A stretch of DNA of 44,752 bases. Origin: a virus (taxonomy: Duplodnaviria > Heunggongvirae > Uroviricota > Caudoviricetes). Positions within the stretch are counted from its first letter, which is position 1; the number at the start of each line of letters is the position of its first letter. Below, piece by piece: positions 2,951-44,752 of this stretch. Location of the stretch: positions 1 through 44,752 of IMG/VR virus record IMGVR_UViG_2671180296_000008. One strand, written 5' to 3'. Below the pieces are notes generated by a model. It saw only the letters and a list, made by a program, of their open reading frames with translations, did not search any database and was not told the origin of the DNA. Made by a program: the position numbers and the translations under genes.

Positions 2951-3105
2951 AGTTCGCTCCCATTCGTACCAGTCCGCAAAATTCCCTGAATATCAAGCCT
3001 TCCGCAGATTCACAGTTCGTAATGGTTCGCGTCAGATCGTTGACAGCCGCACTCCGTGACGGGTAAAAAGTGGATAAAATAATTTTACCCACCGGATTTT
3101 TACCC

Positions 3106-4263
3106 ATGCTCACCGTTAAGCAGATTGAAGCAGCAAAGCCGAAAGAAAAACCATACCGCCTTCTCGATGGTAATGGCCTGTACCTTTATGTCCCTGTATC
3201 CGGGAAAAAGGTATGGCAGCTTCGCTACAAGATTGACGGTAAGGAGAAAATCCTGACCGTCGGAAAATATCCGCTTATGACTTTGCAGGAGGCAAGGGAT
3301 AAAGCATGGACTGCGAGGAAAGACATCTCGGTTGGCATCGATCCGGTAAAAGCGAAAAAGGCTTCGTCTAACAACAATTCCTTTAGTGCGATTTACAAGG
3401 AATGGTACGAGCACAAGAAGCAAGTATGGTCAGTAGGCTATGCAACTGAACTTGCCAAAATGTTTGATGACGACATTTTACCCATCATCGGCGGCCTTGA
3501 GATTCAGGATATTGAGCCGATGCAACTGCTGGAAGTAATCCGCAGATTTGAAGATCGCGGTGCAATGGAGCGAGCCAACAAGGCCCGCAGAAGATGCGGC
3601 GAGGTTTTCCGTTACGCTATTGTCACTGGTAGGGCTAAATATAACCCGGCACCTGACCTTGCAGACGCCATGAAAGGATACCGTAAGAAGAACTTCCCAT
3701 TTCTTCCTGCAGACCAGATCCCGGCATTCAACAAAGCACTGGCAACATTTTCAGGAAGTATCGTATCGCTCATTGCCACCAAGGTTTTACGCTATACAGC
3801 CCTAAGAACGAAAGAGCTTCGTTCCATGCAATGGAAGAACGTCGATTTTGAAAACAGGATTATCACCATTGACGCCAATGTGATGAAGGGACGCAAAATT
3901 CATGTGGTTCCTATGTCAGACCAGGTAGTTGAACTTCTCACTACGCTAAGCTCAATCACCAAACCAGTATCAGAGTTTGTTTTTGCCGGGCGCAACGATA
4001 AGAAGAAGCCAATCTGCGAGAACGCGGTATTGCTTGTGATTAAACAAATCGGCTATGAGGGTCTGGAAAGCGGTCACGGATTCAGGCATGAATTCAGCAC
4101 GATTATGAACGAGCACGAATGGCCTGCTGACGCTATTGAAGTGCAACTTGCACATGCCAACGGCGGATCTGTGCGCGGGATTTACAACCATGCTCAGTAT
4201 CTAGATAAGCGCAGAGAAATGATGCAGTGGTGGGCGGACTGGATTGATGAAAAGGTGGAGTGA
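3106..4263 (+). CDS. intS: Tyrosine integrase, IntS-like
   Basis: MLTVKQIEAAKPKEKPYRLLDGNGLYLYV... recognised; start taken at ATG 3106 rather than the GTG at 3070 of the ORF track. Confidence 0.8.
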   Translation: MLTVKQIEAAKPKEKPYRLLDGNGLYLYVPVSGKKVWQLRYKIDGKEKILTVGKYPLMTLQEARDKAWTARKDISVGIDPVKAKKASSNNNSFSAIYKEWYEHKKQVWSVGYATELAKMFDDDILPIIGGLEIQDIEPMQLLEVIRRFEDRGAMERANKARRRCGEVFRYAIVTGRAKYNPAPDLADAMKGYRKKNFPFLPADQIPAFNKALATFSGSIVSLIATKVLRYTALRTKELRSMQWKNVDFENRIITIDANVMKGRKIHVVPMSDQVVELLTTLSSITKPVSEFVFAGRNDKKKPICENAVLLVIKQIGYEGLESGHGFRHEFSTIMNEHEWPADAIEVQLAHANGGSVRGIYNHAQYLDKRREMMQWWADWIDEKVE

Positions 4264-29819: not shown

Positions 29820-30107
29820 TTACTCCTTCACTTTGACTCCAGCAGCGCGGATGTTTTCCTCATAAGCATCCATTGCATCACCGAAGCCATTGGAATAATC
29901 AACAGTAAACCCTTTGGATAATGCTTCTCTGCTGTCGATAAACTTTGGCGCGGTTATTTCAATAGCTGCGCGAGATGCCTGCCATGCCCTCCATGCCATT
30001 TCCGTGGATGAATAAACATACCCGCAATCACCATATGCAAGGCTTAAATTTTGCTTTTTCGCGAACTCCAAAAACTGCTTTCTTGATTCGTCCATATCAC
30101 TCTCCAT
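29820..30107 (-). CDS. Hypothetical protein
   Basis: 95-aa ORF in the nin/replication junction; start uncertain. Confidence 0.45.
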   Translation of the reverse strand: MESDMDESRKQFLEFAKKQNLSLAYGDCGYVYSSTEMAWRAWQASRAAIEITAPKFIDSREALSKGFTVDYSNGFGDAMDAYEENIRAAGVKVKE

Positions 30108-30122
30108 CGATGATTTTTTGGG

Positions 30123-30305
30123 TTACCAACAATATTTGATAGTCGCCATAATTATCGGTAGCAACGCGCAGACAACTGAAAACCGTAAAACAAAACCTAC
30201 TCCCAATATGCGATATCCATTATTCCAGAGAACAAAACTCATCATCAGAAGGAATCCATGAAAAATCGCGACAAGAAATAAACTACAAATAAATGCATTT
30301 ACCAT
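30123..30305 (-). CDS. Hypothetical small hydrophobic membrane peptide (60 aa)
   Basis: MVNAFICSLFLVAIFHGFLLMMSFVLWNNGYRILGVGFVLRFSVVCALLPIIMATIKYCW; AT-rich; could be non-coding. Confidence 0.3.
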   Translation of the reverse strand: MVNAFICSLFLVAIFHGFLLMMSFVLWNNGYRILGVGFVLRFSVVCALLPIIMATIKYCW

Positions 30306-35784: not shown

Positions 35785-36027
35785 ATGAAAATTAAAACCA
35801 TGGGCGCAAGCCCATTAAGCGGTCGTATTTTTCAAGGAACATTAAACACTGAAAAAGGAATGTGGGTAGGAAAGAAAGAAGATGTCACCGAACAGGCAGT
35901 TAAGGCAGTAGCTGAACACCTGATGATAAAAGACCAGAAATACGCATACGAAACGAAGGATGGCAAATGGCTGATAATAAGCCATCAACTGGTTGATAAA
36001 TTACCAGAAGATTTTATTGCTGATTAA
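35785..36027 (+). CDS. Hypothetical protein (pL operon)
   Basis: 80-aa ORF, not recognised. Confidence 0.45.
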   Translation: MKIKTMGASPLSGRIFQGTLNTEKGMWVGKKEDVTEQAVKAVAEHLMIKDQKYAYETKDGKWLIISHQLVDKLPEDFIAD

Positions 36028-36099
36028 AATTTTTTTGGCATAAACAACAGAATAAACACTGCACTGTGTATTCATTCCAACGAGTGAATACACGGAGCA

Positions 36100-36471
36100 A
36101 TGTCGCTCGTAACTAAACAGGAGCTGACTTGTTCTGATTATTGGAAATCTTCTTTGCCCTCCAGTGTGAGGGCGATTTTTTTGACGGAGTGTTTTATGGG
36201 TGACATGGGTGAATTTTGGCGAGACTGGAAACCAGAACTTAAAGAAAGACGCCGAAAGGCTCGCGACTCGGCTTTCGAAAGAATATCGGCTTTCTTTAGG
36301 CGCAATGAAGTTGAGTTTGAGGAAGGAAATAACACTCTGATATTCAGAACTCCGAATGGAACAGTAGCTTATTATCCGCCATCGCAACGCATGCAGCATA
36401 AAAACACCTGGAGAGATTGCAGTCCTACCTATTGCATGAATTATGTAAAAAAACTAAGAGCCACCGAATAA
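36100..36471 (+). CDS. Hypothetical protein (pL operon); start uncertain, possibly ATG 36196
   Basis: Same strand as the pL operon; competes with antisense ORF 36001-36399. Confidence 0.3.
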   Translation: MSLVTKQELTCSDYWKSSLPSSVRAIFLTECFMGDMGEFWRDWKPELKERRRKARDSAFERISAFFRRNEVEFEEGNNTLIFRTPNGTVAYYPPSQRMQHKNTWRDCSPTYCMNYVKKLRATE

Positions 36472-36555
36472 ACGACTTTTAATTACCGCATCTTAGTTAG
36501 CATTTATTCAAGTGTTCAATCGTAATGTAATCACAACTAACCAAGGAACTTCCCC

Positions 36556-36690
36556 ATGATGCAACTCAGCTATGCGGGAAGCGGCGTCATGTCCGCTTTC
36601 TACCCGCACGAATCTGAATTATCACGCCGAGTTAAACAATTAATCAGAGCAGCAAAGAAACAACTGGAGGCGTTATGCGCAATGAAATAG
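36556..36690 (+). CDS. cIII: CIII-like small protein (44 aa; candidate FtsH inhibitor)
   Basis: Translated by hand: MMQLSYAGSGVMSAFYPHESELSRRVKQLIRAAKKQLEALCAMK; resembles lambda CIII by recollection. Confidence 0.5.
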   Translation: MMQLSYAGSGVMSAFYPHESELSRRVKQLIRAAKKQLEALCAMK

Positions 36691-36827
36691 CCATCAATCA
36701 CCAGATGCTTCGTGCTGCACAGAACAAAGCAGTAATAGCCAGATTTATTGGTGATTCCAAAATGTGGATTGAAGCAAATAAAGCGATGAAATCAGCTATC
36801 AACCTTCCGTGGTATCGCAGGAAATGA
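36675..36827 (+). CDS. kil: Kil-like small protein (50 aa)
   Basis: Translated by hand: MRNEIAINHQMLRAAQNKAVIARFIGDSKMWIEANKAMKSAINLPWYRRK; the FIGD.KM segment resembles lambda Kil by recollection. Confidence 0.45.
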   Translation: MRNEIAINHQMLRAAQNKAVIARFIGDSKMWIEANKAMKSAINLPWYRRK

Positions 36828-36908
36828 GTTTTACAGATAACTGGTCAGACGAAGAATTCATTCGTCAGATGAACAAAATGCTCAATCAGCACAAAGAACA
36901 GGAGAAAG

Positions 36909-37220
36909 ATGATGATTCTGACTCTGAATGATAAGCGTGAAATATCGCAAATAATCGCAAGTTTTACTGATGAAGATTACGAACGAATCAACAGTGAAGT
37001 TGATCGCCTATGCAAACGTTGCGACCCAATAAGCGAAATGCTTCGCTCATATAAACCAGATGAACACACTAAGGACGCTATCGACTGGCTGGAAGATGAT
37101 GACTGTAACTATCAGGAAAAAGCCGCTGAATGGTTCTGGGATGCAATAACCGAAAGAGTTAAGGCTGAATATGCCTTCGCAATATTCAAACGCAGACATA
37201 TTTATGGAGAAGCAGCATGA
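36909..37220 (+). CDS. Hypothetical protein upstream of recT
   Basis: 103-aa acidic ORF; start may be ATG 36912. Confidence 0.45.
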   Translation: MMILTLNDKREISQIIASFTDEDYERINSEVDRLCKRCDPISEMLRSYKPDEHTKDAIDWLEDDDCNYQEKAAEWFWDAITERVKAEYAFAIFKRRHIYGEAA

Positions 37221-38119
37221 GCAATATCGTTGAATTCGTTAAACAGCAAGAGCAGTTATTCTGCGGAGCATTGACTGAACAGACGGTGACATGGGCTAAG
37301 GAAAGCCAGTTTGCAATTCAGTATTTCCAGAAAAATGATTACCTGGCTAAAACGGCACTGGCAAATCCAACCAGCGCACAGAACGCCATCATCAATGTTG
37401 CGGCGATCGGCATCACCTTAAACCCGGCCAGCAAACTTGCTTATCTAGTTCCGCGCGACGGCATGGTTTGCCTTGATATCAGCTATATGGGATTACTTCA
37501 CCTTGCACAGTCGACAGGATCAATTAAGTGGGGGCAATGCAAACTGGTGTACTCAAACGACACCTATGAATCAAACGGCCTTGATTCAGCACCAACCCAC
37601 AAATACAACGCATTTGGTGAACGAGGCTCTATTGTTGGTGGTTATTGTACGGTTAAAACAGCAGATGGTGACTACCTCACTGAAGAAATGAGTCTGGCAG
37701 AAATTAAAGCTGTGGAAGCAACGAGCAAGGCAAAGAATGGACCGTGGAAGACATTCTGGAATGAGATGGCGCGAAAGACGGTCGTAAAGCGTGCAAGCAA
37801 GTATTGGCCTAAGGCATCACGCCTTGATAGTGCTATTCACGTACTAAACGAAGAAGAAGGCGTGTGGACCGAACCAGTTATGCCGCACAAATCAGAGGAA
37901 GATATCCGCGAAGATGAACGGAAACGCCAGCAGGAAATAATGGATAAAGCACAACTTCTTTGCGATGAAATGGCTCAGGCAGAAAACATGGATGATTTGA
38001 AGCGATATTTTGCAGAAGCATATCGCCTGACATATGGAATGAAATTGCAGCAGAACGTACAAGCCATTTACATAGAATGCAAAGCGAAACTGGAGGTTGC
38101 CAATGAGCAAACTGTATGA
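37217..38119 (+). CDS. recT: RecT-family single-strand annealing recombinase
   Basis: 300-aa ORF with RecT-like core (…GLLHLAQSTGSIKWGQCKLVYSNDTYE…) by recollection. Confidence 0.75.
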   Translation: MSNIVEFVKQQEQLFCGALTEQTVTWAKESQFAIQYFQKNDYLAKTALANPTSAQNAIINVAAIGITLNPASKLAYLVPRDGMVCLDISYMGLLHLAQSTGSIKWGQCKLVYSNDTYESNGLDSAPTHKYNAFGERGSIVGGYCTVKTADGDYLTEEMSLAEIKAVEATSKAKNGPWKTFWNEMARKTVVKRASKYWPKASRLDSAIHVLNEEEGVWTEPVMPHKSEEDIREDERKRQQEIMDKAQLLCDEMAQAENMDDLKRYFAEAYRLTYGMKLQQNVQAIYIECKAKLEVANEQTV

Positions 38120-38585
38120 AATTGCCAATGAATACGCAAAATTGATGGATTCAGATTTAGAACCAGAGATGATTGCTGACACAATAGAAGGCATGGAAGG
38201 AGAATTTACCGATAAAATAGAGCAACTTCTTGCCATTATTAAAAATGAATCTGGTTATGCTGAACGCCTCAAGGAAGAGGCAAAGTCACTGAATGAGCGA
38301 GCCGCAGTAATTCAAAATAAGATTGGCAGCATTATGGCGTATATAGCGTCATCGCTTGAAATGGTTGGCAAGAAAAAGATTAGAGCAGGTATTCACCAGG
38401 TAACAATCCGCAAACCGTCAGAAACTGTAGAAATCATCGACTCAAGCGCCCTTCCTCCTGAATACGTTGAGTTTGAAACGACAATTAAAGCCGACAAACT
38501 GGCAATCAAACACCAACTAAAAGCAGGAATAAATATCCCCGGCGCTCAACTCAAAGTTGGGAAACCTTCACTTCTTATCAAATAA
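38097..38585 (+). CDS. Gp157-family protein (commonly partnered with RecT)
   Basis: 162-aa acidic ORF immediately after recT; family assignment by recollection. Confidence 0.5.
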   Translation: MPMSKLYEIANEYAKLMDSDLEPEMIADTIEGMEGEFTDKIEQLLAIIKNESGYAERLKEEAKSLNERAAVIQNKIGSIMAYIASSLEMVGKKKIRAGIHQVTIRKPSETVEIIDSSALPPEYVEFETTIKADKLAIKHQLKAGINIPGAQLKVGKPSLLIK

Positions 38586-38596
38586 CGGTATCGCCT

Positions 38597-38911
38597 ATGA
38601 AAAAGACTCCATGGGAGAAATGGGAAGTCGATTTCTTGCGCGAAGTGGCGGCAACAATGCCAGTTGAAGTTATCGCTGAAAAACTGGAAAGGACTGAAAA
38701 AGCAGTAATGGCGAAAGCAACAAGGATTGGCGCTGACATTGTTAGCCGACTTCGTGGAAGACGCTGGACAAGAGCCGAAGTATCACTTTTCGGTAAGTTC
38801 TCCGCAGAAGAAATAGCAATTGCAACCTGCCGCTCAATTTATTCAGTAAGAGCTATGCGATACAAGCTAAAAAAACTCGATGAAGAAAGAGCAGGCATAC
38901 GAATAAATTAA
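38597..38911 (+). CDS. Hypothetical protein
   Basis: 104-aa ORF, not recognised. Confidence 0.45.
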
Positions 38912-39091
38912 CAAAGAGGAATTTACCATGAGAGGACTTGCATACAATCCCGGCATTCTTCCGGCAGAAATGATTATTCGCCAACGCGTAAAGCCAATGC
39001 CATCGAGAGAGGAATTGCTTAAGAGAAATTCTTTTCCATCAGTGAATCAAAACAAATATCTGAATGCGATGTGGCGCAAAGGAGGCAACCA

Positions 39092-39736
39092 GTGAGCAAC
39101 CGTTTTTACATGATGTGCTCGCGTGAAACTGTGGGTAATAACGCTTCATTCCATTGCCATAACGGCAATGGTTACAGTTCTGATATCGATCGCGCTCATG
39201 TTTACACGCTGGAAGAAGCCCAAAAAGCCTGGAATTGTGGGCGAGATATAGATCAGCCTGTTTGTGCCGATAGTGTGGATGCAATGGCAGTGTGGCACGT
39301 TGATTGCCAGTACATCCCTACAGAAAGCCTGATTGAGTCAGATTGCACTGAATATGTAGCCTACATAAAAGGTAGATGGAACGGCAACGATGTTTACTGG
39401 CTTCAACATGGTGGATTTCCAACCGATGACTTCAGTAAAGCAACCATCTTTAGCGTCGCCAACAAAAACGAACCAGGAATAGTTTGGTTGCCATTTTCCA
39501 TCACTGATGCAGTAAAGCGCCGGACGTTCAATATCAATAATTTTAACCGCAGAACAATGGTTCAGGGCGCAGGTTTGATCATGCCTGACTGGTTGAAAAA
39601 GCAAAACAGAAGAAAGAAGTCGCGAAGCGGGAAAGTGCGATGGAATTGTCCGCATTGCGGAAAAATTATCTGGCAGTACAGCCCATATGATTTTGAAGGC
39701 TGTCGTGATTACAACTGTGAAGGATGGCGAGTATGA
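39092..39736 (+). CDS. Hypothetical Cys-rich protein with C-terminal zinc-ribbon-like CPHCG...C..C motif
   Basis: GTG 39092 with AGGAGG 7 nt upstream; alternative starts GTG 39071 or ATG 39110. Confidence 0.45.
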
Positions 39737-40620
39737 GAATTGACTATCAGGCACTACGTGAAAAGGCAGAGAAAGCAACGTGGGGTGACTGGGACTCATA
39801 TAAACCACACCGTGGCGCACGTGGTTATGAAGTCAGGCTAAGTAGTCAGGCCATTGCGCAACACGTTCTGAAAAACAACGCTGAATTTATTGCTGCCTTT
39901 AATCCAAAGATTGCTTTGGCATTACTGGATGAACGGGAAAGAAACCAGCAATACATCAAACGCCGCGACCAGGAGAACGAGGATATTGCGCTAACGGTAG
40001 GGAAGCTGCGCGTTGAGCTTGAAGCAGCAAAATCAAAACTCAACGAGCAGCGTGAATATTACGAGGGAGTAATAGCGGATGGAAGTAAGCGCATAGCAGA
40101 ACTGGAAAAACAATGCGCCGAATGGGAGCGAAAAGCATTAAGCAACTTTGAAGAGTGTGCTGCGATGGCTGAACGTATCGAAGAGTTGCAGACAAAATCT
40201 GCACCAGATTCGTTTGGCATCATCGGTGAAAATATTCGAACACAGGATAATCGAATAACGTCAGACCCTATGTTTTGTGTGTATCAAAAGCGCGAAATCG
40301 TTGTTGATGCTGATTATGACTATGACCGGATTGTCTGGGTTGATGAAGATGGCAATGAAGCCAATAAACGCCAAAGTCGTCATCTCGAACTACTTCACGA
40401 AAACTTTCGAGAGCCACCAGAAAAATGGCGGCGCGTTGCTGTGAAAGATATTGATGAATTCGTTACCTGCTGTTTCACCGAACAGGGTTGTAAAGACTAC
40501 CTGGCAGTCAATGGTCACAATCTTCGCTTGCCATTTATATATGTAAATGGCGGTTTCAGGAACGCTGAATATATCGGCATAAGAAACTGGCTTGCTGGCA
40601 TTCGCATCAAAGGAGAGTGA
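39724..40620 (+). CDS. Ead/Ea22-like family protein
   Basis: N-terminal ...IDYQALREKAEKATWGDW... motif and coiled-coil middle resemble Ead/Ea22-like proteins by recollection. Confidence 0.45.
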   Translation: MASMRIDYQALREKAEKATWGDWDSYKPHRGARGYEVRLSSQAIAQHVLKNNAEFIAAFNPKIALALLDERERNQQYIKRRDQENEDIALTVGKLRVELEAAKSKLNEQREYYEGVIADGSKRIAELEKQCAEWERKALSNFEECAAMAERIEELQTKSAPDSFGIIGENIRTQDNRITSDPMFCVYQKREIVVDADYDYDRIVWVDEDGNEANKRQSRHLELLHENFREPPEKWRRVAVKDIDEFVTCCFTEQGCKDYLAVNGHNLRLPFIYVNGGFRNAEYIGIRNWLAGIRIKGE

Positions 40621-40621
40621 T

Positions 40622-40816
40622 ATGGCAACCAACAACCGTAAAGCAAAGATTCTGTTAGTTCGCAGAAACGCTCCTGGCGTCTGGCAGTGGGTGAGACTCA
40701 GCAACCGACGGGTGGGGTTAATGAAACATTACGGGATGATGGATTGTGGTTTTTGCAAAAAGCCCAGCGCGGCGCAAAACCGCTGGAAAAACCACTTGCG
40801 TACTAAAGGAGAGTGA
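40622..40816 (+). CDS. Hypothetical small protein
   Basis: MATNNRKAKILLVRRNAPGVWQW...; preceded by the conserved AAAGGAGAGTGATATGGC junction. Confidence 0.4.
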   Translation: MATNNRKAKILLVRRNAPGVWQWVRLSNRRVGLMKHYGMMDCGFCKKPSAAQNRWKNHLRTKGE

Positions 40817-40817
40817 T

Positions 40818-41027
40818 ATGGCTATTGCCGCAAGTTACACCATGCATCTCTATTGTGACTGCCGCCAGTGTACGGAAGGTGTATATCCAGTGCCAGACTT
40901 CGGTGAGTATATCGGTACGTCATGGTCTGGTTGTGCAAAAGAGGCGCGCAAGGATGGCTGGCGAATAAGCAAAGACAAAACGCGTGCTTTTGCGCCCGGG
41001 CATAAAGTTTTGAGGATTAACAAATGA
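40818..41027 (+). CDS. Hypothetical small Cys-rich protein
   Basis: MAIAASYTMHLYCDCRQCTEG...; preceded by the same junction motif. Confidence 0.4.
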   Translation: MAIAASYTMHLYCDCRQCTEGVYPVPDFGEYIGTSWSGCAKEARKDGWRISKDKTRAFAPGHKVLRINK

Positions 41028-41503
41028 CCACTATTACCAAAGAGCGACTGCTGACAATCAAGCAGTGGCGCGAAACATACGGACCTGGTAGCAACGTTGT
41101 ACTGCCAGCAGAAGAAGCGGAAGAACTGGCGCGGATTGCGCTGGCATCGCTGGAAGCAGAGCCGGTGGCGTGGAAGGTAACCTTCACGCAAATTGACCGT
41201 GAATATAACACGTTCACTGGTATGTATTCTGACAAAGCAGAAGTCGAACGGTGGGTACGTCTGCATAAAGCATGTAATTTTCGGGCAGATATAACACCGC
41301 TTTATACCGCCAAGCCAGTGCCGGTAACTCCGGATGGTTGGGTTATGGTGCCGAAGGAGTTAACGCCGGAAATGATGAGAGCCGTTCAGATTAGAAGTGA
41401 GCTTGGAGGGTATGCCACTTCCAATCTATCTGGTGCATACAATATGTTTTCTGAGTTCTGGAATGTTGCTGTCTCAGCTGCGCCTAAGGTGGATGATTTA
41501 TGA
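41024..41503 (+). CDS. Hypothetical protein
   Basis: 159-aa ORF, overlapping start/stop with its neighbours. Confidence 0.45.
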   Translation: MTTITKERLLTIKQWRETYGPGSNVVLPAEEAEELARIALASLEAEPVAWKVTFTQIDREYNTFTGMYSDKAEVERWVRLHKACNFRADITPLYTAKPVPVTPDGWVMVPKELTPEMMRAVQIRSELGGYATSNLSGAYNMFSEFWNVAVSAAPKVDDL

Positions 41504-41796
41504 ATCTATATCGCTGCCCATTCTGTGGTTCCACTGTGCTTAACATCGGATACTCATTCAGTATCAGAGGGAAAATGCGCTATGTGTCATGCAAATGTGG
41601 TGCCCAAGGATCAGAAAAACGAACTAGATCTGAAGCGATTTCTTCATGGAATAGTCGAATGAAAGTATGGGTTTATGATCCAGAAACAATATTAAACGCT
41701 GAAGAGCGCAGGAGAACAGAAGCCTATATTCATAACCTTAATGAAGATGGATTTACACCAGTGCTTGTAAAGGCTACTCCACAGGAGGTGAAGTAA
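41500..41796 (+). CDS. Lar-family-like restriction alleviation protein (Zn ribbon)
   Basis: N-terminal YRCPFCGS...CKCG motif as in Lar-family proteins by recollection. Confidence 0.5.
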   Translation: MNLYRCPFCGSTVLNIGYSFSIRGKMRYVSCKCGAQGSEKRTRSEAISSWNSRMKVWVYDPETILNAEERRRTEAYIHNLNEDGFTPVLVKATPQEVK

Positions 41797-42074
41797 TGGA
41801 CGCCTTCGCGAAATATACGATTATTGACTGGATAGCCTTCCTTCAGGTTTTGCTCATCTGGTTTTATATGGCTTACAGGAGTGGACAGTGGATTGTCAGT
41901 GTAGCCTGTAGCAAGGGATGGCGTTGGTGGAACCGAAAGAATAAAAAAGCACTGGCATTGGATTCGTTTTACGAAGCATTCAATCTTAACAGTCTTCAGC
42001 CTGGTTCTGTCATTGTAGTCACCACTCAAAGCGGCATGACCATTCAGATTCATAAACCAAAAGAGGAAAAATGA
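41796..42074 (+). CDS. Hypothetical membrane protein
   Basis: 92-aa ORF with a hydrophobic N-terminal segment. Confidence 0.4.
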   Translation: MDAFAKYTIIDWIAFLQVLLIWFYMAYRSGQWIVSVACSKGWRWWNRKNKKALALDSFYEAFNLNSLQPGSVIVVTTQSGMTIQIHKPKEEK

Positions 42075-42385
42075 TGTGGCCTATATGTGTTAATTGCGGA
42101 CGGATGTGCCTATCTGGATGGTGCCGAAAGTGCGACAAATGCACGAAGAAAAGACAATAACATTCCTCGCACTCGCGGGGATTTCTTTTATCTGAACTCG
42201 CTACGGCGGTTTTTTATGGAGATGATAAATGCACTTCCGAGTTACAGGTGAATGGAATGGAGAACCATTCAACAGAGTTATCGAAGCAGAGAACATCAAC
42301 GACTGCTATAACCACTGGATGATATGGGCGCAGATAGCGCATGCAGACGTAACCAACATTCGAATTGAAGAACTGAAAGAACACC

Positions 42386-42410
42386 AAGCCGCCTGATGGC
42401 GGTTTTTTTT
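42386..42410 (+). terminator. Rho-independent terminator
   Basis: GCCGCC-TGAT-GGCGG followed by TTTTTTTT. Confidence 0.6.
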
Positions 42411-42421
42411 GGTGGTAGTAG

Positions 42422-42637
42422 ATGGCTGCAATTCACATTGTATCAATAATATGCAATGCAATTCAGATAGTTGCTTGCATTATCTTTGTTTTCTCAATCC
42501 TTCGCTCCCGACGATATTCTCCAGCAATTAACCGACATCCTGCACAAGTTGAAGCCGTCAGGATGGCTATAGAGTTACGAAATGAGATGAATAAGGCATT
42601 AATGGAGATGGAGAAACCATTCACTGACAAACATTAA
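42422..42637 (+). CDS. Hypothetical small membrane protein
   Basis: 71-aa ORF with hydrophobic N-terminus, between two terminators. Confidence 0.4.
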   Translation: MAAIHIVSIICNAIQIVACIIFVFSILRSRRYSPAINRHPAQVEAVRMAIELRNEMNKALMEMEKPFTDKH

Positions 42638-42713
42638 GAGTGGAAATAAAGAAATCACACCACCTCACTCTCAATGAGGCATTTTCATTTATCAAGATAT
42701 CCAGACCTACCAT

Positions 42714-42736
42714 CACCGCATCAATGCGGTTTTTTA
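42714..42736 (+). terminator. Rho-independent terminator
   Basis: ACCGCA-TCAA-TGCGGT followed by TTTTTTA. Confidence 0.5.
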
Positions 42737-42780
42737 TTGCCTGATTTGCAGGTTCGATTCCCTATTCGGAGATAGCACTC

Positions 42781-42981
42781 ATGCAACACGAACTACAACC
42801 TGATTCACTGGTTGATCTGAAATTCATCATGGCTGATACTGGCTTCGGTAAAACCTTCATCTATGACCGGATTAAGTCCGGCGACCTGCCAAAAGCCAAA
42901 GTTATCCACGGGCGAGCAAGATGGTTATATCGTGACCATTGTGAATTCAAAAATAAGCTCTTAAGCCGCGCCAATGGGTAA
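42781..42981 (+). CDS. torI: Excisionase / recombination directionality factor, TorI/AlpA-family
   Basis: 66-aa ORF MQHELQPDSLVDLKFIMADTGFGKTFIYDRIKSGDLPKAKVIHGRARWLYRDH...; adjacent to attR as for TorI of KplE1. Confidence 0.55.
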   Translation: MQHELQPDSLVDLKFIMADTGFGKTFIYDRIKSGDLPKAKVIHGRARWLYRDHCEFKNKLLSRANG

Positions 42982-43054
42982 AATAGCGGGTAAAATATTT
43001 CTCATATCTCAAAAACACCATTCCAATCAATCCCCTGCTGCCTCAAGTAGATGT

Positions 43055-43075
43055 CTGCAGGGGACACCATTTATC
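43055..43075. repeat. attR core: 21-bp direct repeat CTGCAGGGGACACCATTTATC
   Basis: Exact identity with 2930-2950 (tRNA 3' end). Confidence 0.65.
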
Positions 43076-43504
43076 CTTCCAACGAAATCTACCTTCCCCG
43101 CGTAAAAGTTGGGTTTGGCAGCACACTTGCCCTAAATCTACTCATTTTCCCTGCAACAGGTTGAAATCTCAGCACTGTGCGGCGATGACTAAACAGCCCC
43201 GGGCCTGGCAATGTAATCATCACACAGAATCCTGATCGCGAAATCTGGCTTGACTCGATACTTCACTCCGCAATGCATTCCTTGATGGATTAGCAGGCCC
43301 GTGATACACGGGACAGGTCGCTGAATTACGACAATTTCCTGGAAATCAGCGAACCGCGTATCCTGAGTACATTTGAGCGGCTGTTCCAGAACATGAATGA
43401 GGCGTTTGGATTAGGCGATTATTAGCCGCGCTAAGCATTTTGGTATTATTATTTTCCGGTTGAGGGATATAGAGCTATCGACAACAACCGGAAAGAGTTT
43501 ACGT

Positions 43505-44752
43505 CTATATTGCAGAAGGTACAGGCGTTTCCATCACCATTTGCTCACGTTTTTTACTCAGGAAGAAAATGCCAAATAACAACATCAGGCAGACAATACC
43601 CGAAATTACGAAGAAAACCGTCTGGTAACCTGCATGGTCAAAAAGTATTCCAGTCGGCGTTGAAAGCAACACAATCCCCAACGAACTGGCAATTTGAAAA
43701 CCAATCAGAAAGATCGTCGACGACAGGCGTTTATCAAAGTTTGCCACGCTGTATTTGAAGACGGAAATGACACACAGTGGAACCTCAATGGCATGTAAAA
43801 GCTTCACTAATGAAATAATCCAGGGATTAACGAACAGTGCGCAGGAAAGAATACGCAACGCCATAATCACAACACCGATAAGTAATGCATTTTTTGGCCC
43901 TACCCGATTAACAAAGAAAGGAATAATGGCCATGCACAGCGCTTCGAGTACAACCTGGAATGAGTTGAGATAACCATACAGGCGCGTTCCTACATCGTGT
44001 GATTCGAATAAACCTGCATAAAAAACAGGAAAGAGCTGTTGATCAAAAATGTTATAGAAAGACCACGTCCCCACAATAAATATGACGAAAATCCAGAAGT
44101 TTCGGTCCTTGAAAACTGCAATAAAATCCTCTTTTTTTACCCCTCCCGCATCTGCCGCTACGCACTGCTGATCCTGATATTTAAAACGCATGTTGATCAT
44201 CATAAATACAGCGCCAAATAGCGAAACCAACCAGAAGTTGATATGGGGACTGATACTGAAAAATATGCCAGCAAAGAACGCGCCAATCGCATAGCCAAAA
44301 GATCCCCAGGCGCGCGCTGTTCCATATTCGAAATGAAAATTTCGTGCCATTTTTTCGGTGAAGCTATCAAGCAGACCGCAGCCCGCCAGATACCCCAAGC
44401 CAAAAAAGAGCGCCCCCAAAATTAGACCTACAGAAAAATTGCTTTGCAGTAACGGTTCATAAACGTAAATCATAAACGGTCCGGTCAAGACCAGGATGAA
44501 ACTCATACACCAGATAAGCGGTTTCTTCAGACCGAGTTTATCCTGGACGATGCCGTAGACCATCATAAATAGAATACTGGTAAACTGGTTGACCGAATAA
44601 AGTGTACCTAATTCCGTCCCAGTCAACCCTAGATGTCCTTTCAGCCAAATAGCGTATAACGACCACCACAGCGACCAGGAAATAAAAAAGAGAAATGAGT
44701 AACTGGATGCAAAACGATAGTACACATTTCTGAATGGTATATTCAGTGCCAT
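43505..44752 (-). CDS. cscB: MFS oligosaccharide:H+ symporter, CscB-like sucrose permease
   Basis: 415-aa 12-TM ORF MALNIPFRNVYYRFASSYSFLFFISWSLWWSLYAIWLKG...; LacY-family features; recollection that the csc locus lies next to argW in some E. coli. Confidence 0.55.
   Translation of the reverse strand: MALNIPFRNVYYRFASSYSFLFFISWSLWWSLYAIWLKGHLGLTGTELGTLYSVNQFTSILFMMVYGIVQDKLGLKKPLIWCMSFILVLTGPFMIYVYEPLLQSNFSVGLILGALFFGLGYLAGCGLLDSFTEKMARNFHFEYGTARAWGSFGYAIGAFFAGIFFSISPHINFWLVSLFGAVFMMINMRFKYQDQQCVAADAGGVKKEDFIAVFKDRNFWIFVIFIVGTWSFYNIFDQQLFPVFYAGLFESHDVGTRLYGYLNSFQVVLEALCMAIIPFFVNRVGPKNALLIGVVIMALRILSCALFVNPWIISLVKLLHAIEVPLCVISVFKYSVANFDKRLSSTIFLIGFQIASSLGIVLLSTPTGILFDHAGYQTVFFVISGIVCLMLLFGIFFLSKKREQMVMETPVPSAI

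Follow-up and report, generated by a model that had tools for sequence, protein, structure and literature searches.

The window analyzed here is a stretch of 44,752 nucleotides (nt) of a Caudoviricetes virus (IMG/VR record IMGVR_UViG_2671180296_000008, positions 1 to 44,752), and it is a P22/HK620-like prophage. At two consecutive gene junctions of its early-left 'ea' operon, both on the + strand and 3' of an ead/Ea22-like gene, the window contains the same 18-mer, AAAGGAGAGTGATATGGC, which we refer to as the cassette. This cassette is probably a translational-coupling junction that doubles as a short conserved recombination linker between otherwise unrelated accessory genes. The features that make up or adjoin the two junctions, together with a partial copy elsewhere in the window, are given below, with lengths of proteins in amino acids (aa) and open reading frames abbreviated as ORFs.

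40609..40626, + strand: cassette copy 1, with the long-form tail upstream
40805..40822, + strand: cassette copy 2, the short form, with the upstream codons ...CGT ACT
40594..40626, + strand: long-form linker of 33 nt, made up of GCTGGCATTCGCATC (which codes for AGIRI) and the 18-mer
40627..40822, + strand: 196-bp indel unit (the 64-aa gene and one cassette copy), bounded by 18-bp direct repeats
39724..40620, + strand: ead/Ea22-like gene of 298 aa, ending ...AGIRIKGE-TGA (Pfam PF13935 Ead_Ea22, E 7.6e-35)
40622..40816, + strand: small ORF of 64 aa (MATNNRKAK...HLRTKGE), phrog_1380, of whose profile positions 2-62 of 62 match residues 4-64 only
40818..41027, + strand: small ORF of 69 aa (MAIAASYTMHLYCDC...), phrog_926, matching profile positions 1-69 of 69 (E 9e-37)
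30091..30108, - strand: partial third copy, GGAGAGTGATATGG / GATGGAGAGTGATATGGA, 14 of 18 nt with an identical 14-nt core, providing a ribosome-binding site (RBS) and ATG in an intergenic spacer

The two cassette copies are exact, lie in direct orientation and are spaced 196 bp apart. Among 100 dinucleotide-preserving shuffled controls searched with up to three mismatches, the mean number of matches was 0.02 and none of the 100 had three matches, so the repeat that a prior reading of the sequence alone (the sequence-only reading) had placed at these two positions is exact and not expected by chance. Read in frame, the cassette consists of the codons AAA GGA GAG (KGE), the stop TGA, a single T, and ATG GC, the start of an ATG GCN. 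The upstream ORFs end ...GIRIKGE-TGA (39724-40620) and ...HLRTKGE-TGA (40622-40816), while the downstream ORFs begin with ATG GCA at 40622 (MATNN...) and ATG GCT at 40818 (MAIAAS...), in agreement with the KGE-stop and MA start described for both junctions. The flanks also differ as reported; the bases 5' of the repeat are ..ATC for copy 1 and ..ACT for copy 2, and identity stops directly after ATGGC.

AAGGAG is a canonical Shine-Dalgarno (SD) sequence. In the cassette it sits inside the KGE codons of the upstream gene, with a 6-nt spacer between GGAG and the ATG, and the whole has the anatomy of a coupled junction: AAGGAG, 5 nt that include the TGA, and the ATG, with a stop-to-start gap of 1 nt. 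No + strand promoter-like or terminator-like site was found in 39500-42160, and therefore the genes of this region are co-transcribed and tightly packed. The RNA structure at the two junctions was not significant (fold z +1.48 and +0.18) and no Rfam match was present in 36000-44752 at E<=0.1, and on these grounds a structured RNA or known RNA family was rejected. Since no strong structure sequestering the SD is predicted, translation of the upstream gene may promote that of the downstream gene without being strictly required for it.

The partial copy at 30091-30108 precedes a nin-region ORF, and no upstream gene terminates in it. This ORF is listed as 29820-30107; the SD before its second ATG (30095) suggests that this is the true start. 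The spacer that contains the partial copy comes after a 60-aa hydrophobic ORF (30123-30305, - strand).

In IMG/VR at least 120 stretches contain the exact 18-mer. A census was taken of all copies, with the two variable positions allowed. Removal of identical 418-nt contexts left 184 contexts. Single-linkage clustering of whole upstream proteins gave only three clusters, because the Ea22-like proteins are themselves mosaic, and it was replaced by clustering on the C-terminal 56 aa minus the last seven; downstream proteins were clustered on residues 5-64. The 184 contexts then comprised 25 upstream clusters and 19 downstream families in 64 combinations, with the common partners associated in a near-factorial manner. 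The check proposed with the sequence-only reading, namely a search of related phages for the same junction with different flanking genes, thus gave a positive answer. At every one of the exact occurrences (131/131) an upstream ORF ended in KGE-TGA and another ORF began at the ATG. As a counter-check to this motif-ascertained census, 80 loci were gathered by means of the 69-aa protein alone. These contained 15 unrelated upstream gene bodies, and conservation of 80% or more was confined to about 16 nt. In this unbiased sample the cassette is the roughly 16-nt sequence AAAGGAGNNTGATATG, to which many upstream genes add a longer form with GGCATTCGCATC (12-15 nt). On the downstream side identity between phages ends at ATG(GC). 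The 33-nt long form of the window was identical at 33/33 positions in the related loci L016, L113 and L250, and the sequence farther upstream was unrelated. The cassette is thus a short conserved stretch at a gene boundary with non-homologous flanks and varied partners on both sides, as is found for boundary sequences. When 1.58 Mb of related loci were scanned for k-mers, cassette 14-mers ranked first for the number of unrelated flanks on both sides, a ranking that is subject to ascertainment bias.

The possibility that KGE or GIRIKGE is a functional peptide tail was also considered. The (A)GIRIKGE tail was present at the end of 10 or more unrelated upstream C-terminal domains, among them that of an XF1762-family gene in a P2-like prophage. 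Of the in-register variant copies, 31 of 32 change an amino acid (GAG to GAC, GGG or GCC; GGA to AGA; that is, E to D, G or A, and G to R), and all but three keep AAGGAG intact, the three reading AAAGAG, which is still purine-rich. These variants are nonsynonymous with the SD kept, and therefore the constraint is on the nucleotides and not on the KGE peptide. A functional peptide tail was rejected on this evidence, and the ...KGE and ...GIRIKGE ends of unrelated accessory proteins are a footprint of the RBS and linker, not a protein motif. The long-form tail most likely derives from the 3' end of ea22-family genes, where a comparable sequence is also seen in lambda.

Comparison with individual loci located several breakpoints at the cassette. 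Window positions 40172-40626 align with L078 8276-8730 (97%) and window positions 40805-41038 with L078 8713-8946 (93%). Both alignments include the only 18-mer of L078, where they overlap, and therefore the window has a precise extra unit of 196 bp, which should be prone to precise loss. In L036 the small gene and cassette are followed by 909 bp with two other genes, after which come another cassette copy and the 69-aa gene; exactly this cassette-bounded segment is missing from the window. Other loci contained two cassette copies 576, 658, 921 and 1313 bp apart. The sequence-only reading had proposed the junction as a candidate site for modular gene exchange, and the gene combinations, the four phage types described below and these cassette-bounded indels all point in that direction, the role as a crossover site being deduced from them.

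A further line of evidence comes from the 5' end of the 64-aa gene. The native phrog_1380 gene begins ATGAAAAACCGTAAAG (MKNRKAK) in about 25 loci, behind quite different junctions, whereas that of the window begins ATGGCAACCAACAACCGT. The first three codons (MAT) of the 64-aa ORF are evidently cassette-derived and grafted, and the scar reads ATGGCAAC, then CAAC, then AACCGT, with no homology on the gene side; the first capture was therefore illegitimate. The grafted allele ATGGCAACCAACAACCGT was found behind five unrelated upstream C-terminal domains, which share only (C)GC(C/T)GCTGGCATTCGCAT(C/A), about 15-22 nt, in addition to the cassette. Since an allele of single origin lies behind five unrelated domains, later exchanges must have been resolved within about 33-40 nt. 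A different kind of junction was seen in L042 (- strand, about 12570), where an eight-codon mini-ORF, ATGACCACTAGCATCAAAGGAGGGTGA (MTTSIKGG*), stands directly before a gene with a cassette start; it appears to be the scar of a deletion that joined the beginning of a DUF551-type gene (MTT...) to a cassette tail.

The sequence-only reading also took the cassette to fix the start codons at 40622 and 40818, and several results favor these starts. The cassette or a variant differing by 1-2 nt lies directly 5' of the start codon in 80/80 homologues of the 69-aa gene, public coding sequence annotations place the downstream starts at the cassette ATG, and the PHROG profiles cover the ORFs from there. 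Codon differences among the 69-aa genes showed a synonymous excess in frame (5839 synonymous versus 2120 nonsynonymous), compared with 934 versus 7408 in frame +1. The corresponding counts for the 64-aa gene (1929 versus 5133 in frame; 1017 versus 6086 out of frame) are weakly informative, probably because the 5' halves of some alleles are mosaic.

The cassette is not restricted to close relatives of the window. A 32-nt junction sequence, with the cassette or variants of it differing by 1-2 nt, matched 393 of 50,697 phage records, among them Stx phages, VT1-Sakai, P7, Salmonella ST160 and SE10, as well as Kapi1, and the phage types with the cassette are lambdoid, P22-like, P1-like (P7) and P2-like. 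P7 has the exact cassette at upf88.3/upf89.0, ST160 has it at orf8/orf7 with ATGGA after the junction, and HK620 hkaG/hkaF reads AAAGGAGAGTGAGATGGA, a 1-nt variant. In the P2-like prophage the cassette lies between the XF1762-family gene and a hypothetical gene, with 35 nt of identity to the window. The ea22 gene of lambda, represented by the lambda derivative phage DE3 (L262, locus positions 880-930), ends ...GGCATTCGCATCAAAGGAGAGTGA, which is the long form up to the TGA. After this, lambda has GATCGG where HK620 has GATGGA, there is no ATG, and ea8.5, the next annotated gene, starts about 190 nt farther on. The end of lambda ea22 looks like a vestigial cassette that has lost its ATG. When positions 39724-41503 were compared by megablast with phages and E. 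coli genomes, extreme mosaicism was apparent and no record covered 80% of the query. Many alignments stopped at query 903-906 (window 40626-40629), which is the 3' edge of the cassette, and others stopped at query 1301-1304, the next gene junction.

In 596 Gb of sequence from 185,579 species, with one genome each, the exact 18-mer occurred 58 times, compared with about 17 expected for a random 18-mer. Eight of the 58 were the phage junction and about 50 were unrelated RBS and ATG sites in random taxa. The phage-junction matches were limited to Escherichia, Enterobacter and contigs that are evidently misbinned or contaminant. From the roughly 50 unrelated matches it follows that independent origin is possible but very rare, and on these numbers it cannot explain two copies within 196 bp. 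Among the related loci, L207 and L216 (a Segatella copri metagenome-assembled genome), L253 (a Collinsella metagenome-assembled genome) and L254 (a 427-bp contig of Xanthomonas pisi) were 97-100% identical to enterobacterial phage loci over the aligned stretches around the junction. The likeliest explanation is that public non-enterobacterial assemblies contain these contigs through misbinning or contamination.

The window shows P22/HK620-like gene content (tailspike, DNA-transfer protein, portal, head-closure protein and terminase), and the features of its two ends and of the operon that bear on possible recombination enzymes are as follows.

3070-4263: integrase, adjoining tRNA-Arg(CCT) at 2870-2944; the sole integrase of the window, at the far prophage end from the cassettes
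37217..38119, + strand: RecT-family single-strand annealing recombinase (Pfam RecT, E 1.7e-33; phrog_148)
38097-38585: Gp157 / Mu Gam-like gene, adjoining RecT (Pfam Sipho_Gp157; PHROG described as Mu Gam-like end protection)
42781-42981: AlpA/TorI-like excisionase, at the opposite prophage end from the integrase

An integrase by tRNA-Arg(CCT) with an excisionase at the opposite end is the layout of KplE1/HK620-type argW prophages, and the prophage of the window probably lies at argW. In matching E. coli genomes the neighbor of the excisionase-like gene carries an MFS transporter annotation. At the right end even the closest E. coli matches reach only about 95% identity, and none spans 80% of 36500-44752. 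The order of the operon is RecT, the Gp157/Mu Gam-like gene, small genes, the ead/Ea22-like gene, the phrog_1380 ORF, the phrog_926 ORF, a DUF551-annotated gene and a Lar-like gene. Its other junctions differ in sequence, with ATGA overlaps at 41024 and 41500.

A mosaic of this kind might also arise without any exchange at the cassette. In the model of Hendrix and Juhala, illegitimate joints form at random and survive if the genes and the RBS work, and the cassette would be a passenger 3' end. The grafted 5' end of the small gene, which has no gene-side homology, the graded shared extent (MA, MAT or MATL downstream; KGE or GIRIKGE upstream), the vestigial mini-ORF MTTSIKGG in L042 and the fact that 18 bp is less than the minimal efficient pairing segment fit that model. 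It is harder to reconcile with 64 combinations that have the same 16-18 nt in common and that break at identical positions, since near-factorial reassortment of the common partners needs many independent events at the same nucleotides. The single-origin allele, linked to five unrelated upstream domains by at most 40 nt of common sequence, and the indels bounded exactly by the repeat also speak against illegitimate joining with selection, which is the principal rival and which we consider unlikely. Convergent selection for optimal SD-stop-start coupling, with all copies independent, would account for a cassette that is a near-ideal RBS, for the roughly 50 unrelated occurrences in diverse bacteria, all of them RBS and ATG, and for the partial copy at 30091-30108, which works only as an RBS. 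Those 50 are nevertheless all that 596 Gb contains, junctions of the same operon use quite different sequences (the ATGA overlaps at 41024 and 41500), and identity often runs on for 12-15 nt into codons outside the SD (GGCATTCGCATC), as well as into the gene downstream. With identity this extended and independent origin this rare, chance and convergence are effectively refuted, and we regard them as extremely unlikely.

If the 18-mer were the target of a specific recombinase or nuclease, in a dedicated mobile gene-cassette system of the integron or homing type, this would explain why genes between two direct copies recur at spacings of 196, 576, 658, 909, 921 and 1313 bp and why the cassette crosses lambdoid, P1-like and P2-like phages. 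The gene content between copies varies, however, and the cassette has no dyad symmetry, hairpin or Rfam match. The neighboring genes vary freely and do not regularly include one for a recombinase or nuclease, and the only integrase of the window (3070-4263) lies by the tRNA-Arg at the far prophage end. We judge such a system very improbable; an integron-type attC cassette in particular was rejected for want of a hairpin or Rfam family and in view of the position of the sole integrase. That the two copies result from local tandem duplication or slippage in this window, as two exact direct copies 196 bp apart might suggest, is scarcely credible. The flanking genes are mutually unrelated and belong to different PHROGs with only 18 nt shared, the same arrangement exists in the independent contig L123, and each junction alone occurs in many phages; duplication is refuted by these comparative data.

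The reading of the cassette as a coupling junction that also serves as a recombination linker can be set out at two levels. In the polycistronic mRNA the last three codons, AAA GGA GAG, would supply the SD, with the TGA between it and the ATG, and a ribosome ending the upstream gene would be delivered onto the strong start of the next gene. At the DNA level the 18-mer, with its 5' extension GGCATTCGCATC, would be a boundary common to many otherwise unrelated genes. Phage annealing recombinases (for which the RecT at 37217-38119 is a candidate enzyme here) or RecA would act on this linker, through homologous or short-homology exchange, to reassort upstream and downstream genes and also to insert or delete cassette-bounded units. 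The probable origin of the cassette is the native 3' terminus of genes of the ead/ea22 family, from which it would have spread in two steps, an illegitimate capture by a new gene, such as the MAT graft on phrog_1380, followed by homology-driven reshuffling. The anatomy, distribution, gene combinations, breakpoints and nucleotide constraint on which this proposal draws were observed; coupling and crossover within the cassette we infer, the latter from the combinations and breakpoints.

At the DNA level the data agree with the classical view that short conserved boundary sequences are sites of general recombination (Susskind and Botstein 1978 and Clark 2001, both as cited in PMC3029335 and PMC2327257), and Rad52-like phage recombinases recombine short and diverged homologies (PMC3945230). 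Efficient pairing needs a segment of at least 23-27 bp with Red-beta and 31-34 bp with RecA (De Paepe 2014, PMC3945230), while RecET recombines homologies of 5-13 bp at about 1e-8 (Martinsohn 2008, PMC2327257). Several results weigh against the proposal. The 18 bp of the cassette fall below the published minimum even for Red-beta, and only the long form of 30-33 nt reaches the threshold. The bare 18-mer is marginal for pairing and the 33-nt form is within range, which is the main weakness of the linker model. The extent of sharing is graded (KGE only versus GIRIKGE upstream; MA versus MAT versus MATL downstream), and the unclean phrog_1380 graft with its extra CAAC indicates that at least some joints were illegitimate and fell near the cassette instead of within it. 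Because the motif itself served in part to ascertain the loci, the context counts are biased upward. A four-gamete test of loci with the same gene pair favored the proposal, incompatibility being 71% across the junction versus 12% and 46% within the flanks, but this contrast is confounded by distance.

The cassette is of a known kind, the boundary or linker sequences of mosaic temperate phages, and it leaves the conceptual picture unchanged. Clark et al., in the 2001 account of the HK620 genome, reportedly discussed such boundary sequences in that phage. A search of the open-access literature, which did not extend to that account, returned no relevant match to the exact cassette string. Like lambdoid boundary linkers, the cassette comprises 16-33 nt conserved exactly at gene boundaries, joins non-homologous partners in many combinations, and lies in a non-essential early region of lambdoid and P22-like phages, with a 1-nt variant in HK620. 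Unlike them, it is not intergenic but is made of last codons, stop and first codons, and it reaches P1-like (P7) and P2-like genomes. With translationally coupled junctions it shares the 1-nt stop-start gap, the AAGGAG in upstream codons, the 6-nt spacer and the absence of a nearby promoter or terminator; ordinary coupled junctions, by contrast, are specific to a gene pair and have no nucleotide conservation between unrelated pairs, and coupling is here predicted. The RecT gene in the operon and mosaic joints at short patches of identity recall the Rad52-like short-homology systems (Red-beta, RecT and Erf) regarded as drivers of mosaicism, although the studies of these (PMC2327257, PMC3945230) concern exchange over hundreds of bp of diverged homology, whereas cassette identity is 18-33 bp. 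Single small genes with short repeated bounds, present or absent between relatives, are likewise a feature of integron attC cassettes and of morons. The cassette differs from integrons in having neither an attC-like hairpin, as the fold z values above indicate, nor an integron integrase, and the ORFs in 40622-41027 differ from morons in having no promoter or terminator of their own; a moron reading was rejected because 39500-42160 has no + strand promoter-like or terminator-like site.

Whether mosaic joints in phages arise by homologous exchange at linkers or by random illegitimate joining and selection is debated, and few linkers are well documented. The cassette is an unusually clean and abundant example (about 16-33 nt, in hundreds of genomes, at least 64 combinations and four phage types) that shows both first-capture scars and repeat-bounded indels, and it offers a natural substrate well suited to measurements of how RecT, Red or Erf recombine short homologies. 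The cassette also fixes the starts of many small ORFs without functional annotation in Stx and P22-like prophages. It is interesting to speculate, improbable as we think it, that lambdoid, P1-like and P2-like phages have in common a gene-cassette system dependent on RecT/Erf/Sak4, with the cassette as its dedicated site of exchange. If this were so, single accessory genes between two copies would be inserted and excised as units, functionally like integron cassettes, by general annealing recombinases, and the SD-stop-start module would ensure expression wherever a gene lands.

Other junctions of similar construction were found in the window and in related loci, including the following.

39075..39097, + strand: second linker of the same design, CGCAAAGGAGGCAACCAGTGAGC, exact in the window; the upstream gene ends ..RKGGNQ-TGA and overlaps a GTG start at 39092

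Related loci contained 56 copies of the related 14-mer GCTTCGCAAAGGAG, which usually lies 5' of Ea22-like genes and whose flanks fall into 16 and 10 unrelated clusters. The k-mer scan also recovered CTTCGCAAAGGAGGCAACCAGTGAGC 5' of Ea22-like genes, a variant of which is in the window at 39075-39097, as well as a ...CCGCCGCAGGAGGTGA..ATG junction of the same design. The phrog_2457 gene probably starts at 39092 and not at the mechanical ORF start of 39071, with the PHROG profile covering residues 8-220. Within genes of the DUF551-annotated family, related loci (e.g. L036 and L046) contain a linker, GCGCCGCCATGCTT (RAAML), at an apparent domain boundary; there was no exact match to it in the window. 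Past GCGCCGCCATGCTT the protein either terminates by way of the KGE cassette or has any of several C-terminal regions that are mutually unrelated, which suggests that domains may be shuffled by the same logic.

Just before the excisionase-like gene, the + strand of region 42160-42740 contains three intrinsic-terminator-like hairpins (42164-42181, 42386-42405 and 42715-42730) and a 27-nt imperfect repeat, consisting of a terminator tail, RBS and ATG, at 42205-42231 and 42398-42424, 193 bp apart. These frame two small ORFs, 42229-42396 (55 aa) and 42422-42637 (71 aa), which by this arrangement are apparently moron-like units.

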